Below, piece by piece: positions 5,749-18,160 of a stretch of DNA of 20,000 nt. The DNA lies in the IMG/VR virus record IMGVR_UViG_2049941000_000100; one strand, 5' to 3'. Source of the DNA: an uncultured virus (IMG/VR IMGVR_UViG_2049941000_000100). Lineage: Duplodnaviria; Heunggongvirae; Uroviricota; Caudoviricetes. The notes below the pieces were generated by a model. The model ran no database searches. It saw nothing but the letters and a program-made list of their open reading frames with translations, and was not told the origin of the DNA. Both the position numbers and the translations under genes were made by a program. How positions within the stretch are numbered: position 1 is the stretch's first letter; the number at the start of each line of letters is the position of its first letter.

Positions 5749-7236
5749 ATGAATAAGTTTACGAATGCGATTAAAGAAACTACTTCCCAGAAGCTGACGG
5801 AGAATGGAGCCTTTGCGTATAATACTACGGAAAGTGACCTTTTGGATTTGTTTGCGGAGATTGGTGCGTTGCGCCCGAGAACTGAGGCGGAAATTACTGA
5901 AAAGTTCGAGAGAGCTTTTAAGGAAGATGCGACTCTCGCTATGCGTATGGCTTTCTATGCGCGTGACGTAAGATTCGGCGGACTCGGTGAGCGCCGGACG
6001 TTCCGTATTATCCTTAAGTGGATTTGCGAAAATTATCCGGAACTTGCTACGGCTAATATTCCGAATATTACTACTTTCGGTCGTTTCGATGACCTCTATA
6101 CTTATGTTGGTACAGAGGCAGAAGAGGCTATGTGGAAGTATATGTATACGACTCTTACAAATGACTATGAGCGTATGCTTGAGGGTAAGCCGATTTCTCT
6201 TCTTGCTAAGTGGCTGAAGTCCATTAATACCTCTAGCCGTGAATCTCGTAAGCTCGCTCGCCTTACGCTTAAGAACCTCGGCTTCCATAACGAACGCCAT
6301 TATCGTAAGGTTTTGGCTCGTATGAGGGATTACCTTAATGTAGTTGAAAATCGTATGAGCGCGCAGGAGTGGGATAAGATTAACTATTCTCAGGTTCCGG
6401 CTTATGCGATTAAGAACTATGGTAGCGCTTTTGCAAAGCATGATTACGAGCGGTGGAACCAGTACCTTAAGGACTTGCAGAAGGGTACTACTAAGGTTAA
6501 TGCGAGTACTTTGTATCCGTATGATTTGGTTCACCAGTATATGGATAAGTACTATGGTGATAGCTATGGTCCTAATACTCTTACCGAAGCCCAGTGGAAG
6601 GCTCTACCGGATTATGTGGGTGATGGTGCTAATGTAATGGTTATGGCTGATGTTAGCGGTTCGATGATGGGGCGTCCGATGGAAACTTCGATTGGTCTTG
6701 CGGCGTACTTCGCGCAGCGTAACCATGGTCCGTTTGCGGGTCTTTTCCTTACGTTTACCGACATTCCTCGGTACATCCATGTGCGGAGTGATGATAAGCT
6801 CTATACTATGATTAATAAGATTCGTCAGAACGTCGGTTATAATACCAATTTGGATAAGGCTTTTAATCTTATTTTGGATACGGCTCTTAATAATCACGTT
6901 CCTCAAGAGGACTTACCTCGCGCGCTTGTAGTTGTCTCTGATATGGAGATTGACTCCTATGTGAGATACCATGGGTTAGATTTCGTTAAGACTTGGAGAG
7001 AGCGGTTTAAGGCGTATGGGTATGAGCTTCCTCAGCTTGTACTCTGGAATGTGGAGGCGCGCAACGATACGTTCCTTACGAAGATGGCGACTAAGGGAGT
7101 TACTTTCCTTTCTGGTCAGAGTGCATCTACGTTCAGAAGCCTTATCGATACGTTGAACTGTAAGAGTGCGTATGAGGCAATGGTGAAGGTTCTTATGAAC
7201 CCCGCCTATGACGTAGTAGTTACTAAGGTAGCATAA
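5749..7236 (+). CDS. Ro60/TROVE-like RNA-binding protein (DUF2828 family with C-terminal vWA domain)
   Basis: N-terminal TENGAFAY..LLDLF, FYARDVRFGGLGER, FGRFDDL, SLLAKWL, LYPYDLV; vWA MIDAS MADVSGSM...NTN...SDMEID, LVLWNV. No TAG codons. Confidence 0.85.
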   Translation: MNKFTNAIKETTSQKLTENGAFAYNTTESDLLDLFAEIGALRPRTEAEITEKFERAFKEDATLAMRMAFYARDVRFGGLGERRTFRIILKWICENYPELATANIPNITTFGRFDDLYTYVGTEAEEAMWKYMYTTLTNDYERMLEGKPISLLAKWLKSINTSSRESRKLARLTLKNLGFHNERHYRKVLARMRDYLNVVENRMSAQEWDKINYSQVPAYAIKNYGSAFAKHDYERWNQYLKDLQKGTTKVNASTLYPYDLVHQYMDKYYGDSYGPNTLTEAQWKALPDYVGDGANVMVMADVSGSMMGRPMETSIGLAAYFAQRNHGPFAGLFLTFTDIPRYIHVRSDDKLYTMINKIRQNVGYNTNLDKAFNLILDTALNNHVPQEDLPRALVVVSDMEIDSYVRYHGLDFVKTWRERFKAYGYELPQLVLWNVEARNDTFLTKMATKGVTFLSGQSASTFRSLIDTLNCKSAYEAMVKVLMNPAYDVVVTKVA

Positions 7237-8442: not shown

Positions 8443-8577
8443 GGGGGCGTGGTGGAATCGGCAGACACAACGGACTTAACGGTATGAGGCAAACCGTAGT
8501 AGGGTTATCACCTACCATATCGACCAAATCCGTTTTGCTTTACGCGAGTGTGGGTTCAAGTCCCACCGCCCCTACCA
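8443..8577 (+). tRNA. tRNA-Leu(TAA) with a 47-nt insert in the anticodon loop
   Basis: Acceptor GGGGGCG/CGCCCCT-A-CCA, stem ACGGA/TCCGT, long variable arm, GTTCAA T-loop. Removing 8480-8526 (or 8479-8525) restores the loop CT-TAA-AA. Confidence 0.85.
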
Positions 8578-8778: not shown

Positions 8779-9669
8779 TCTCATAGAAATAAACCATTTA
8801 ACTAGAATAGTAAAGATTATGACTCTCTTTTTTATAGGGCAATTCGTAAATATGGGTTAGAAAATTTTGACTTTGAAATAATAGAAGAATGTAAAAAAGA
8901 AGAATTAAATGAAAAAGAAAGATATTGGATAAAATTTTATCATACCTATGCTGGTGATATTGATAATAACGGTTACAATTTAACTTTGGGTGGAGAAACA
9001 AATGCAGTAACGCAGCAATAGATAGATAATGCAGAAGAAATAAAACAATTATTATTAACTACTCAAATAACTTAGGTAGAAATAGGTAAAAAATTTGGCT
9101 TAAGTCATGCTTCAGTTAGTTATATTAATAATGGAAGAGCTTGGCATGATGATAATTTAATTTATCCATTGAGAGAGCCCGTTGGAGTTACTCCTAAGGA
9201 AATTAGAGAAAAAGAATGTTTTTGTGTTGATTGTGGAAAATAGATAACTAATAAAGCTAAACGTTGTTATGAATGTAATTTATTATATTTAAAAGAAAAG
9301 AACCGAAAATAGCCTCCGGTCACAAGGGATGAATTAGAAAAACTTCTTTTACAAAATAATGGTAATTTTGTAGAAGTAGGTAAAGTTTTTAATTTAACAG
9401 ATAATGCTATTCGTAAATGGTGTGACAAGTTCGGTCTATCAAGACATTCTAATGATTATAAAGAGAAAAAAGAAAAACCTAAGAAATCTTTTGAAATTAA
9501 ANNNNNNNNNNATATTAACACCGGAGAAGAGTTAAAAGAATTTGCTAATTCAGAATAGGCAGGCGCGTATCTAGGAAAAACTTCTGGCACGCATATTCGA
9601 GAAGCGGCCGCAGGAAAAAGAAAAACTGCATATGGATATAAATGGAAATTTAAAAATGTGGCGGAGTAA
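8779..9669 (+). CDS. GIY-YIG homing endonuclease with Zn-finger/HTH/NUMOD1-like tail (N-terminus in gap)
   Basis: FYRAIRKYGLENFDFEIIEEC...LNEKERYWI...NGYNLTLGGE, CVDC..CYEC, RKTAYGYKWKF. Several TAG=Q. The stop lies inside tRNA-Val. Confidence 0.85.
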
Positions 9670-9734
9670 CTCAAAAGGAGAGTGCCATCTTTACACGGTG
9701 GAAGTTGAGATTGCAAAATTCTCCTCCGCTACCA
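9660..9734 (+). tRNA. tRNA-Val(TAC)
   Basis: GGCGGAG/CTCCGCT-A-CCA; CCATC-TT-TAC-AC-GGTGG; atypical T-loop. Confidence 0.8.
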
Positions 9735-9910: not shown

Positions 9911-10020
9911 TAGACGCGTGAACAGCGAATTTAGGATGAATAGCTTAACGGTTTAAGCATCTATTATTTAATAGAAGACTGTCGGTTCAAATCCGGCTTT
10001 ACCCGCACATTTGCGTCTAG
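9911..10020 (+). ncRNA. Y-like RNA, copy B (tRNA mimic inside a closing helix)
   Basis: TAGACGC..ACAGCGAAT-[D arm, 4-nt-loop hairpin, T arm GTCGG-TTCAAAT-CCGGC]-GCGTCTAG. Confidence 0.7.
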
Positions 10021-10233: not shown

Positions 10234-10262
10234 TTGAAATTTTTTTAAAATTCTGATATAAT
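10234..10262 (+). promoter_or_regulatory. Sigma-A/70 promoter
   Basis: TTGAAA-N17-TATAAT with TGn. Confidence 0.8.
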
Positions 10263-10290
10263 ATTTATAGAAAGTTAAGAGAAAAACTTT

Positions 10291-10499
10291 TTGAGCTGGC
10301 CAGCACCGCGCTGCAGAAAGCTCGTTAAACACGGGGCTGCGGTAAAGCGTTAACACGAGGTTTTATGGTTTGAACTAGGGTATTTTACCCCATGCGGAAA
10401 ACGCTATAGAAAGAAGCGAAGGGAAACCATAAACTGGATACAGACCCAGTATAAAAAGGTGTCGCGCTAATAGACCGCAAGTTCGCAATAGTCTATTAC
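10291..10499 (+). ncRNA. Unclassified structured RNA or leader
   Basis: No ORF; helices GAGCT/AGCTC, ACCGC/GCGGT (crossing), TTTATGGTTT/AAACCATAAA and TAATAGAC/GTCTATTA. Confidence 0.45.
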
Positions 10500-10501
10500 T
10501 T

Positions 10502-10664
10502 GGGAATGTAGCTCAGCCCGGTAGAGCCCGCGCCTGTAGTAAATTGGTGTAATAGCGCACATTGGGGCCGGTGATTCGTTCACAGTCCCGAAGGAACAAG
10601 TGCAATTCTTGTATTTACTTCCATAAGCGCGTTGTCGTAGGATCGAAGCCTACCGTTCCCGCCA
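10502..10664 (+). tRNA. tRNA-CAT (Met or Ile2) with an 86-nt tRNA-shaped insert after U33
   Basis: GGGAATG/CGTTCCC-G-CCA; CGCGC-CT-[10536-10621]-CAT-AA-GCGCG. Confidence 0.8.
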
Positions 10665-10732
10665 TAGGGCGCTCGCATTTATTGGTCTCTTTGATTTGCG
10701 CCCATTCATAAAAGAGCAAATGTAGACCACAA

Positions 10733-10857
10733 TAGATACGTACAGCAAATATATTCATTCGATCTGCAAAATCGCGTGTCGTGGGTTCAAATCCCATCGG
10801 AACTTTCGAGTTCTGTAACTCAGTCTGGTAGAGTAGTATATGAAAAAACGTATCTAG
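10733..10857 (+). ncRNA. Y-like RNA, copy C (circularly permuted tRNA, YrlA-like)
   Basis: TAGATACGT-ACAGCAAAT...anticodon-like arm, T arm, UUCG-capped acceptor stem, D arm...ACGTATCTAG. Confidence 0.8.
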
Positions 10858-11133: not shown

Positions 11134-11610
11134 AGATTACATTGTAACGAGTGTGGATACGAATGGGAAACGAGGCCGACTTAGGTGATTTATCCAGATT
11201 ATGAACACTCTTGTCCTAATTGCAAGTTTGAAAGTACTGGGATAATAGTAACTTGTGCTTATTGTGGAAAAGAAATAAGAAGAACTAACCACGCAATAAA
11301 TAAAAATTAGAGCGGTTATTATTATTGTAGTCGTGAATGTGGTAATCGACATAAAAATATGCTTCGTAAGCAAAGTGGTGAATGGGACCAGTCTTTAAAT
11401 TATCGACTACGCGCATTTGAAAATTTAGAACACAGGTGCGTTGTTTGTGGATGGGATGAGGATGAAAGAATTTTGGAAGTCCATCATAAAGATGAGGATA
11501 GAGCTAATAATGATTTATCTAATTTAGTAATTTTATGTCCGACCTGTCATAGAAAAATTACTTTAGGTTATTATTTGTTAACTGAAGATTATCAGTTAAT
11601 AGAGAAATAA
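11134..11610 (+). CDS. HNH endonuclease with N-terminal Zn ribbons (start in gap; 2 TAG)
   Basis: CNECGYEW..CPNC..CAYCG..YCSREC, then CVVCGW..LEVHHKDEDRANNDLSNLVILCPTCH. Confidence 0.85.
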
Positions 11611-11622
11611 AGGATAAAATTT

Positions 11623-12069
11623 ATGCCTCAATCAAAAATAAATGTTAAAGAACTTAGAAAATTAAAAGGAACTAAATGTTGTAATTGTGGTGATGAATGC
11701 GGTGATAATATTATTTTTCATCATATTATACCTATAAGTATAGGTGGGAATGATATTGAAAGTAATATTGTACCATTATGTACTTTATGCCATAATTTAT
11801 TACATGGAATTAGCAAAGATGGAAAAATTTCTCATTCAGAATTAACCAAAAGAGGAATTGAACGTGCAAGAGCCGAAGGAAAACAGATTGGTGGCGTTAA
11901 GGGTTCAACTTATAATGTGAAGAAAAAGGAAAAAGCTATAGAAATAATTAAAAAATATTCTATTACTTTTGGTGGTCCTTTAAATAATTTAGAATGTATG
12001 CAAATGGCAGACATTTCTAACGGAACTTTTTATAAATATCTTAGAGAATTAAAAAAGGATTAGAAATAA
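11623..12069 (+). CDS. HNH endonuclease with a C-terminal resolvase-like helix/HTH
   Basis: CCNCG..FHHIIPISIGGNDIESNIVPLCTLCHNLLH; TKRGIERARAEGKQIG; ISNGTFYKY. Under code 15 it ends at TAA 12067-12069. Confidence 0.85.
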
Positions 12070-12237: not shown

Positions 12238-12324
12238 GGGTAGATATGCCTAGTAGCGAGGGCCCGTGACTGTAAATCACGTACACAAGAAACATCGATG
12301 GTGCAATTCCATCTCTGCCCACCA
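12238..12324 (+). tRNA. tRNA-Tyr(GTA)
   Basis: CGTGA-CT-GTA-AA-TCACG; long variable arm; A-CCA end. Confidence 0.9.
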
Positions 12325-12393
12325 TTAGTAAATAGTAAACTAAAAAGTGTCTGAACAAAAGCCAAATAGAGTGAGGTTTATTATTTACTCTTT

Positions 12394-12465
12394 CCGCTAT
12401 TCGTATAACAGTAGTACGTCAGGCCTCCAACCTGAGAGCGCGAGGGCGGCACTCGCATGGCGGTC
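12394..12465 (+). tRNA. tRNA-Gly(TCC), atypical, no encoded CCA
   Basis: CCGCTAT/ATGGCGG-T; TCAGG-CC-TCC-AA-CCTGA; T arm GCGAG-GGCGGCA-CTCGC. Confidence 0.7.
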
Positions 12466-12573: not shown

Positions 12574-13292
12574 ATGATAGGAATTTATAAAATAGAGAAC
12601 TTAGTAAATCATAAATTATATGTTGGGCAAAGTATTGACATAGAAGAAAGATATAAATAGCATATTTATAAAGCTTTTAATAATAATGAACGAGCATACA
12701 ATTCAGCAATTCACCAAGCTTTTAGAAAATATGGAATCGAAAATTTTAAATTAGAAGTGATTGAATAGTGTAATATTGATGAATTAGATGAAAAAGAGAT
12801 ATATTGGATTAAATAGTTAGATACTATTTCTCCTAATGGATATAATATATCATTAGGCGGCCAATTTAATAAAGCTTCTAATAAAAGATTTTGTCCCTTA
12901 TGCGGTGAAGTTATGACTAAAGGAGCAGATTTGTGCTTAAATTGCTATTTAAAAGAAAAGTCTAAACATCTACCAAGCGCTGAAGAATTAAAAGAAAAAT
13001 TAATAGAATATAATGGTAATTTTACTCAAGTTGGTAAATTATATGGCGTAATAGATAATTCAGTTAGAAAGTGGTGTAAAAAATACGGTATGCCGTATCA
13101 TAGTAGCGATTATAAAGTAAAGCCACAAAAAAAACCAAATAAAATTCCAGTAGATTAGTTAGATCCAAATACCGGAGATATAATCCAAACTTTTGAAAGT
13201 GCTAATGCTGCTGCGCACTCTTTGGGGAAAAACCGTGGTAGTCATATAACAGAAGCATGTCAAGGAAAATTTAATATTATTTATGGATATAG
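12574..13292 (+). CDS. GIY-YIG homing endonuclease (3' end in gap; 4 TAG)
   Basis: MIGIYKIENLVNHKLYVGQSIDIEERYKQH...RKYGIENF...NGYN, CPLC..CLNC, HTH and NUMOD1-like tail. Paralogous to 8779-9669. Confidence 0.9.
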
Positions 13293-15469: not shown

Positions 15470-16634
15470 GAGAGTGAGAGAGAAAGTAAAAACTTTATTC
15501 CTTTCAATTTACTTTCTCTCTCGAAGCTCAAAGCTTAATACAGGTAGATAAGCAAGCAAGGTGCGGCTATCTACACGGTCCCAACTCCGTAAAGGTTAGA
15601 GTGACAACTAATCGAAGTAGAGGGAGCTTAAAGAGCCAGAGCAACGGCTAGGCAAGATACCATTGGCCAAGGTTGAGCCTTATGACGACCGCCCAAATCC
15701 GAGGTAGCTACTCGGCTGAACATATCGGGAATAGAATTGTGGGTCCCGTCTAAATCTTTTAAGTAGAATGGAAAAAGTTTACTACTAGAATCCAGCTTCT
15801 CCATAGGAACTGCAATAGATTCCTTAAAGGATTGGAGTAAGTAGAGTAGATTACTAAGGAATCGGACTATGCACTTTAGTAGTTGAATTAGAATTAGTCG
15901 TAGTTAGGTATTAACTAGAGTTAGCCTTACTTCTATTGCTAAAATAACTTAGCGGCCCGCTCCGTCAATGCGGCGCGCCCTGTGCGATAAATAGGGTGAC
16001 TAGGGTTCAAATAGTAAACACCCGCGTTTTAAGTAGGGAATTAGCGTATAAGAAATAAACCTACCGCTTGCCCATGGCGAAGCACGGGCTGCGCAGGATG
16101 AAGGATGGCCTGTGAGTTTTAGAAACTTCGTATAATAAAGTTTCTCGTGAGCGTCGCCGCCTCACGTTAAAAAACCGACTAGAATAGGTGAGGGATGCCT
16201 ATNNNNNNNNNNTAGTAGGCAATTAACGTATAAGAAATAAACCTACCGCGTGCTCTTGGCGGAAGCAACGAGCTGCACAGGAGGAGGGATGGCCTGTGAG
16301 TTTTAGAAACTTTGTATAATAAAGTTTCTCGTGAGTGTCGCCGCCTCACGTTAAAAAACCGACTAGAATAGGTGAGGGATGCCTATTGACTTTCAAGGAT
16401 GTGGTACGCGTTAGTCCGAAGTTCAAGATGAACTTAGAGGCCGTTCTTCTTAGGACGACCTCAGATTATGGGTAAGTACTTCTATAAGGAATAGATAGTA
16501 TCTCGGAAGCTGGCCAGGGATGTGGCAATGTAAGTCTTCCCTCCAGGACTGCTGGATGACCCGAATAAGTTTGGGAAAGTTCTTTGATAAAAACTTTCTA
16601 CCTTTTAAGGACTTTGGGTTACATAAGTCCTTTT
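15470..16634 (+). ncRNA. Candidate ~1.1-kb structured ncRNA (or cluster of RNAs)
   Basis: Bounded by a promoter and a terminator-like hairpin, GC-richer than typical spacers, no long ORF in the track, many helices. Confidence 0.55.
16032..16386 (+). repeat. Imperfect tandem duplication of an ~170-nt structured unit
   Basis: Copies at 16032-16202 and 16214-16386, separated by a 10-N gap. Confidence 0.8.
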
Positions 16635-18076: not shown

Positions 18077-18150
18077 TAGACGCATACAGCAAATATAAGA
18101 TATAGACGAACATATTATTTTTTTCTTGTATCTTCAGCACTCGCGTCTAG
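18077..18150 (+). ncRNA. Y-like RNA, copy D
   Basis: TAGACGC-AT-ACAGCAAAT-[AAGATATAG/TTGTATCTT hairpin]-GCGTCTAG. Confidence 0.7.
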
Positions 18151-18160
18151 CAACTTATAC

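Follow-up and report, generated by a model that had tools for sequence, protein, structure and literature searches.

A tRNA-shaped insert with mature tRNA ends in the anticodon loop of a phage tRNA-Asn gene: a candidate intron

Two interrupted tRNA genes in a phage tRNA cluster

The DNA analysed here (the window) is a stretch of 20,000 nucleotides from an uncultured virus of the Caudoviricetes (IMG/VR IMGVR_UViG_2049941000_000100) and belongs to a phage tRNA cluster. Its nearest virus record is G001 (73,498 bp, 53% complete), which contains it at positions 31137-51136. On the plus strand, a sigma-70-like promoter (10234..10262; 11/12, extended -10, a consensus match only) lies upstream of a cassette that includes an interrupted tRNA-Asn(GUU) gene (10502-10664). 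On the same strand are two free-standing HNH endonuclease genes (11185..12069), candidates for a link to the inserts, and a free-standing GIY-YIG homing endonuclease gene (12574..13290), a candidate insert mobiliser. The GIY-YIG and HNH genes are open only if TAG is read as Gln. Beyond the window, G001 carries a tRNA with a CUA anticodon (L361, 7577-7665), which is likely to be the suppressor for the TAG = Gln code.

The anticodon loop of the tRNA-Asn gene has an excess of 86 nt, located between positions 35 and 36. The 5′ exon (10502..10537, plus strand, positions 1-35, ending in C32 U33 G34 U35) agrees with insert-free tRNA-Asn alleles as far as the junction. The insert (10538..10623, plus strand) is tRNA-shaped and runs exactly from +1 to CCA. 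The 3′ exon (10624..10664, plus strand), delimited by the insert-free alleles, comprises U36 A37 A38, the anticodon stem, the T arm, the acceptor strand, G73 (10661) and CCA. Within the insert, the acceptor stem (10538-10544/10613-10619) pairs 7/7, and is accompanied by a D arm (10547-10560), a T arm (10596-10612), U73 (10620) and CCA (10621-10623). The anticodon arm (10562-10591, 30 nt) contains an inner GTGA/TCAC hairpin (10571-10583) and is without a 7-nt loop. A sequence-only reading of this DNA had proposed a tRNA nested in the anticodon loop of another tRNA, and had assigned the same acceptor, D arm, T arm, CCA and inner hairpin; the nesting and every one of these assignments are borne out. 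The cloverleaf fold has a z score of -2.4 (5/200 shuffles equally good), and the acceptor and T stems fell at their exact places in 11 of 1,000,000 shuffles, or in none of 1,000,000 when CCA was required too. In ViennaRNA the nested fold lies 2.1 kcal/mol above the predicted minimum, with a pairing probability of 0.05 for the inner acceptor.

Misassembly, which the sequence-only reading had considered fatal to its claim, is ruled out as the source of the insert because a contig of the independent run X19 covers 10501-10686 with 0 differing letters and metagenome contig L374 carries the same 86 nt (86/86 identical). ARAGORN called 11 tRNAs in the window, the gene at 10502-10664 not being among them, and an Rfam search of this interval gave no match at E 1. 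The inner RNA has neither a 7-nt anticodon loop with U33 nor a D-loop GG, its T loop (TGCAATT) is non-canonical, and it is thus not a decoding tRNA. It starts with A1-U72, which is atypical, as the sole A+1 of 70 nested genes among the matches listed. The insert is also too short for a group I or group II intron, as had been remarked earlier. A group I intron needs more than 200 nt, a catalytic core and a terminal G, and a group II intron needs six domains including domain V; the insert has 86 nt, a terminal A and no Rfam match at E 1. Judged by its sequence, it presents the features expected of an RNase P and RNase Z substrate, namely a 7-bp acceptor, a 5-bp T stem, N73, CCA and U at -1.

The window holds a second element of the same class. 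The tRNA-Leu(UAA) gene (8443..8577, plus strand; Rfam tRNA match of 132 nt) is interrupted between positions 36 and 37 by a minimal element of 47 nt (8480..8526, plus strand) with an acceptor paired 7/7, a T arm paired 5/5, A73 and CCA. This element came from the window itself and from no pattern scan, and 0/1,000,000 shuffles were as good. No intronless Asn or Leu(UAA) gene was called in the 73-kb of G001, a record 53% complete. Three further tRNA genes of the window were overlooked by ARAGORN: Val(UAC) at 9660-9731 and Tyr(GUA) at 12238-12321, both found with Rfam, and an atypical Gly-like gene at about 12385-12465, found by eye. The Tyr(GUA) gene has the same TGCAATT T loop as the insert.

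Register of the insert and its boundaries across phage tRNA genes

Removal of 86 nt from the tRNA-Asn gene can leave CAT, GAT, GTT or GTA, depending on the register chosen. The insert-free alleles L378 and L379 read GT|TAA at the joint; they differ from the filled allele L374 by 2/77 exon letters and by the 86-nt insert, and have the downstream flank in common with it. X19 contains the same empty joint, with 10537 joined to 10633 by way of 9 letters. In a comparison with 862 intronless tRNAs in which the loop was masked, the three closest were all Asn, and the best Met scored 32.5 against 53.5. The outer tRNA carries G73, a discriminator that is an Asn identity element, whereas A73 is expected in tRNA-Met/Ile2 (CAU). 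Once rejoined, it has a 7-nt loop, U33, the anticodon GUU and a purine at 37, as in tRNA-Asn(GUU). Because the empty alleles read GT|TAA and the nearest relatives are Asn, we assign the insert to 10538-10623 and, on comparison of alleles, the outer gene to tRNA-Asn(GUU) with a predicted splice joint GT|TAA; tRNA-Met/Ile2 (CAU) is rejected on the anticodon of the empty alleles, the discriminator and the nearest relatives. The sequence-only reading had placed the insert after U33 of a tRNA-CAT, which is 2 nt out of register. The final CA of the inner CCA, which it had taken for C34-A35 of the outer anticodon, belongs to the insert, and the joint CT|CAT that it predicted gives way to the one seen in the empty alleles. 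Nor need the two products be mutually exclusive as it had supposed, since in the corrected register one transcript can give a spliced tRNA and a free inner RNA.

Filled and empty alleles coexist, with L374 filled, L378 and L379 empty, and X19 containing both forms. The window and L374 have identical inserts, yet differ in 9/77 exon letters, and these differences include three compensatory pairs spanning the insert (5-68, 27-43 and 28-42). An identical insert between diverged exons implies that the rejoined fold is under selection or that the insert passed recently from one working allele to another, and on either reading a removable element is favoured.

Viral contigs and species genomes were scanned and then parsed for tRNA halves around an insert. 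At least 85 distinct candidate interrupted genes were obtained, 70 with a CCA-ended inner unit and 15 of other kinds, among the matches listed; most scans required the inner T loop and CCA, and all left the 5′ end free, so the share of CCA ends is not a free result. The 5′ cut was derived from a 3′ cut after CCA and a 7-nt loop, and the inner +1 was placed independently from acceptor pairing. The two coincided (offset 0) in 70/70 distinct genes among the matches listed, with a mean acceptor pairing of 6.96 of 7 at offset 0 compared to 2.4-3.1 at eight other offsets. Among the matches listed, these nested genes represent 51 lineages and 11 anticodons; the insertion sites are 34/35 (n=29), 35/36 (n=29) and 36/37 (n=12), and the inserts measure 44-135 nt. 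Loop-masked comparison with the nearest intronless tRNA agrees with the proposed register in 47/70 of them and with the U33|34 register in 16/70. Two exceptions were noted: L248 would leave a 6-nt loop, and the insert L123:9844 ends in CTA. Exons of the nested genes retain full stems and identity elements, a property for which the parser selected, and an additional, intronless gene for the same anticodon was present in 1/43 loci (both counts again among the matches listed).

Across the inserts, the acceptor and T stems persist, formed by many kinds of base pair (T stem 5/5 in 44/51 lineages among the matches listed), and the D and anticodon arms decay. The inserts thus form a series from intact tRNAs (Gly, Phe, Asp, Thr, Lys) down to 44 nt of acceptor, T arm and CCA, the degenerate elements keeping only the acceptor, the T arm and the 3′ end. 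Kindred inserts occupy different tRNAs (Gln in L170, Ile in L189). U is found at -1 in 61/70 genes among the matches listed, a count confounded by U-rich anticodons. The interrupted anticodons in the same set are mostly of U34 types, Lys(UUU) leading, a tendency without a control set and with U34 tRNAs common in phages anyway. ARAGORN called 13/70 of these inserts. As tRNA finders overlook nested genes or misassign the anticodon, phage tRNA inventories are undercounted.

A scan blind to the nature of the insert gave at least 120 loci, 71 of them without a reconstitutable outer tRNA. Among the matches listed there were 44 interrupted genes, of which 25 start like the Ile(UAU) introns of eukaryote viruses; in 8 of the other 19 the acceptor and T stems at the junction are clean, and of these 4 end in NCCA, 3 at N73 and 1 at N73+1. 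Other kinds of insert were also found, Lak-like in L166 and group I-like in L305 and L316. One viral-contig scan gave 10/27 nested loci, the remainder being tandem tRNA pairs. In a scan of one genome per species, 5/15 matches were nested, all on MAG contigs of 2-5 kb (Acutalibacteraceae, Clostridium, Kiritimatiellae) that are probably binned phage DNA; no chromosomal nested case was present among the 15. A phage GenBank search with distant matching returned short tRNA-arm matches only. In the tRNA-Ile(UAU) inserts of L297, L314 and L316, ARAGORN reads an inner CUA anticodon, and these elements are possibly amber suppressors nested in another tRNA. At L219, L230, L190 and other loci, the 3′ half of a second tRNA directly follows an intact tRNA-CCA, and the 130 nt upstream contain no 5′ half; such loci are possibly relics of nested genes.

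Proposed splicing route and rival explanations

The insert of tRNA-Asn is an intron-like tRNA mimic, and would represent a new intron class were the reaction demonstrated. It likely acts as an intron, and we hold it probable that splicing takes place by one route or another. The specific route that we propose, at a probability of roughly 0.6, is that these inserts form a widespread class of introns, themselves tRNAs or tRNA mimics, which host RNase P and RNase Z cut out and a phage ligase completes the splice; a captured tRNA would thus serve as a self-removing mobile intron, and one gene could give two tRNAs. At the tRNA-Asn gene, RNase P would cut at the insert +1 (10537|10538), RNase Z would cut just after the insert CCA (10623|10624), and the exons would be sealed, U35 to U36, by the ATP-dependent ligase of Rnl5 type that the phage encodes.

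RNase P leaves a 5′-phosphate on tRNA. Its recognition surface is formed by the acceptor and T domain, with U preferred at -1, according to the accessible text of PMC12630138. As described in the available part of PMC7479834, RNase Z leaves a 3′-OH and cuts after N73 when the precursor is without CCA; on CCA-bearing precursors it cuts mainly right after CCA (70-90% of clones), and the B. subtilis enzyme is slowed 1520-fold by CCA in Mg2+. Both types of insert 3′ end, N73 and CCA, match this specificity. From this established enzymology we infer the cutting nucleases and the exon ends: given the groups that the two enzymes leave, the exons would bear 3′-OH and 5′-P, and would therefore fit ATP-dependent ligases and not RtcB. 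The earlier suggestion of host tRNA-processing nucleases thus keeps its place as the best candidate, the insert ends being predicted cut sites for RNase P and RNase Z. Both nucleases are probably supplied by the host, because EndA (PF01974) was found in 0/50 phage records and RNase Z-like folds in 0/32 carriers. An intron of EndA/TSEN type is disfavoured by the same EndA count and by the sites, which span 34/35-36/37 and are not the canonical 37/38. The 18 RNA runs each hold small shares only, and 3 were compared with the gene. A spliced GT|TAA joint was present in none of these 3 (contigs only, depth 0-3 over the gene), and the sole RNA contig over the tRNA-Asn gene (X1, depth 3) is unspliced; with contigs only and such low cover, the missing joint weighs weakly against splicing.

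Nine kb beyond the window, G001 encodes a 403-aa protein (60499-61707) that we assign from its sequence to the Rnl5-type ligases, with predicted sealing activity. It combines an N-terminal PHA02142 domain and a nucleotidyltransferase domain with KxDG, without a C-terminal appendage. Its best solved relative is NgrRnl (E 2.5e-20), and it scores below the TIGR02306 curated cut-off (98.3 bits vs 151.15). Near it lie a PNK-like kinase, a nucleotidyltransferase and a metallophosphoesterase-like ORF. ATP-dependent RNA ligases (E 0.001 or better) were found in 24/24 carriers of nested genes at least 90% complete compared to 10/21 controls (Fisher p 3.5e-5), a p value that is uncorrected for kinship and overstates the contrast, as the carriers include kin and the controls were screened only at the fetched locus. 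The first batch alone gave 18/18 v 5/7 (p 0.07, not significant). Records less than 90% complete, G061 (which has another insert type), G092, L390 and L421 were omitted from the count; with G061 taken as a control, the controls become 11/22 (p 5.3e-5). G092, the record of the 6-nt loop of L248, has an Rnl5-type ligase, and no ligase was found in the five incomplete carriers G006, G018, G024, G052 and G054. Phage RNA ligases also serve in tRNA repair, which limits the weight of this co-occurrence.

The carrier ligases comprise 16 of Rnl5 type, 7 Rnl1 and, in one carrier, only a short PF09414 protein. The Rnl5-type and Rnl1 enzymes are complementary, none of the 23 carriers tested for both having the two together; G060, 88% complete, has both. 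The Rnl5-type ligases of G001, L340, L341, L347 and L348 share a basic Trp/Arg-rich insertion, absent in the control ligases L336 and L337, which may be an RNA-binding adaptation. RtcB was found in 0/36 carrier records. According to the accessible text of PMC4408790, RtcB joins 3′-PO4 to 5′-OH, the opposite of RNase P and RNase Z ends, and NgrRnl is a duplex-nick ligase that is feeble on single strands; the anticodon loop is single-stranded, unlike the duplex nicks that NgrRnl favours. Of the two kinds of enzyme that the sequence-only reading had named as worth searching for, RtcB and Rnl ligases, the Rnl kind is thus represented in G001 and RtcB is missing from the carriers, and rejoining by an RtcB-type enzyme is abandoned in favour of the ATP-dependent 3′-OH/5′-P ligases that are present. 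The complete earlier scheme, with removal after U33, CT|CAT joined by RtcB and mutually exclusive products, does yield a 7-nt CAT loop on paper; opposed by the GUU of the empty alleles, by G73 and Asn relatives and by this RtcB count, it can be practically discounted.

A harder competitor uses the same two sites with other chemistry. RNase P would make the 5′ cut, and the 3′ step would be taken by another host or phage nuclease or by a one-step attack of the exon 3′-OH on the bond after CCA; alternatively, a host ligase would seal the exons after remodelling of the ends. The boundary and conservation evidence fits it equally, and the effect of CCA on B. subtilis RNase Z, the preference of Rnl5 enzymes for duplex nicks and the presence of the PNK-like kinase and metallophosphoesterase-like ORF in the phage all lean its way. 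We nevertheless consider it unlikely, in view of the match of both kinds of 3′ end to RNase Z, the 24/24 co-occurrence of ligases, and the neighbours of 44 loci (5 kb each side, among the matches listed), which have no nuclease family in common besides homing endonucleases. The gene could also be an unspliced fossil, in which a tRNA captured in a cut loop was copied into DNA, the inner RNA alone or nothing is released, the outer gene is dead and the host tRNA is used. Exact insert ends are expected here too, because capture would involve a mature tRNA (5′-P, 3′-OH); moreover, some inner elements are the intact tRNAs listed above, and the spliced joint is missing from the three low-cover RNA runs. 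What makes such a fossil improbable is that ends stay exact in inserts decayed to 44-60 nt, that the N73-ended versions are not mature tRNAs, and that, with an inner RNA unable to decode, the window gene would retain no useful product. The intact exons and the rarity of spare copies, read with the limits given above, point the same way.

It has further to be asked whether the unspliced double tRNA, or a released inner RNA, is itself the product, acting as a decoy or reserve against host tRNA-cleaving defences. The lead of Lys(UUU) among interrupted anticodons would suit such a role, as PARIS AriB targets tRNA-Lys and PARIS is counteracted by phage tRNAs (PMC11464382, in its accessible part), and so would the 86/86 identity of the insert between phages with differing exons. 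A decoy, however, needs no precise 7-nt loop after removal, and 70/70 genes among the matches listed have one; the inner anticodon arms are not conserved, and U34 types are frequent among phage tRNAs in any case. We regard it as very improbable in place of splicing, with which it is compatible as a possible added role.

As to the origin of the inserts, it is likely that an anticodon loop was cut, that a whole tRNA was ligated into the break and became established at the DNA level, that the captured tRNA then decayed to the part read by processing enzymes, and that the insert spread between alleles by recombination or homing. Homing-type spread is suggested by the free-standing HNH and GIY-YIG neighbours and the coexisting filled and empty alleles. 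Neighbour clustering covered 674 ORFs of 44 loci (5 kb each side), the groups being named by likeness to annotated window proteins. Among the matches listed and without a control set, the groups were HNH-like (17 loci), GIY-YIG-like (14), second endonuclease-like (11) and DUF2828 protein (9), and no dedicated partner gene of the inserts was found among these neighbours. No nested tRNA gene was parsed in 2 relatives of the DUF2828 protein.

Known systems and neighbouring elements

Group I introns occur in the anticodon loops of bacterial and phage tRNAs, are self-splicing, exceed 200 nt and end in G. They share with the present inserts the interruption of the anticodon loop and the association with homing endonucleases, and L305 and L316 are examples; the window insert differs by its 86 nt, its terminal A and the lack of an Rfam intron match at E 1. 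Archaeal and eukaryotic tRNA introns are removed by EndA/TSEN with RtcB or Trl1, at a canonical 37/38 and with cyclic-phosphate ends. These introns are likewise short, located in the anticodon loop and spliced by proteins, as proposed here, whereas our sites are at 34/35-36/37 and the phages gave the null EndA and RtcB counts reported above. In tRNA punctuation and mascRNA processing, RNase P and RNase Z excise a tRNA or tRNA-like unit at +1 and at its 3′ end. In those systems each flank becomes a product of its own, whereas in the route proposed here the two flanks would be joined to make a second tRNA. T4 Pnk/Rnl1 repairs anticodon-loop breaks (cited in the part of PMC4408790 that was available). 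With it and the Rnl5 enzymes (NgrRnl, DraRnl) the proposed route shares ATP-dependent 3′-OH/5′-P sealing, by Rnl1 in 7 and Rnl5-type ligases in 16 of 24 carriers. The T4 system mends a break made by the host, whereas the removal of an encoded insert is proposed here.

The closest precedent is found in Lak megaphages, where a tRNA is possibly encoded within the intron of tRNA-Thr(UGU) (Devoto et al. 2019, accessible text of PMC6784885), an observation repeated for recoded jumbo phages (available part of PMC13037316). The available text indicates that Lak introns resemble the present ones as anticodon-loop inserts in phage tRNAs, with tRNA-like content, filled and empty alleles, strong sequence conservation and TAG recoding. 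As we interpret the accessible Table S6, they have about 30 extra nt with a hairpin before the tRNA-like part, and no CCA. The window insert shares the tRNA-like fold and has neither the extra 5′ hairpin nor the lack of CCA: it is the tRNA-shaped unit alone, at offset 0 and with CCA, in a class that runs from +1 to CCA or N73. For Lak-type introns, neither a boundary rule nor a mechanism was found in the accessible text of PMC6784885, including Table S6, or of PMC13037316, and no mention of introns was found in the available part of PMC7162821. Likewise, the literature searched, in which few subscription papers were covered, contained no inserts bounded by mature-tRNA ends and no mechanism for them. 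Within that literature, tRNA-like phage introns are known from Lak, and the exact mature-tRNA boundary rule and the proposed mechanism are new. The 'enigmatic introns' of phage tRNAs can thereby be treated as a defined reaction that is open to test, in which three enzymes are named and a single junction is predicted. If the proposal is true, viruses of bacteria splice tRNAs without a ribozyme or EndA, tRNA maturation enzymes gain the role of splicing nucleases, and a first candidate substrate is provided for Rnl5 ligases. The birth of introns through RNA capture would then be visible as a series, from an intact tRNA to a 44-nt mimic.

Several other elements of the window were noted. A non-coding block of 215 nt (10284-10498) separates the promoter from tRNA-Asn, without an Rfam match and with a fold z of -0.9; one relative omits it, and in L374, L378 and L379 it occupies another position. 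Many RNA-library contigs match parts of it, most of them contigs of other sequences. Three elements (9913-10020, 10735-10845 and 18078-18152) begin with the motif GA(C/T)RCRY..ACAGC(A/G)A; one of them wraps a tRNA-like unit and one has a sub-threshold YrlA match (E 7.9e-5). A gene for a DUF2828/vWA RNA-binding protein (5749-7236) lies near these elements. We take this protein family to be linked to Ro60, and the pair looks like a Ro60-like protein with Y-RNA-like partners. Finally, two tandem, near-identical structured non-coding units (16012-16200 and 16225-16385) occupy a long ORF-poor region.
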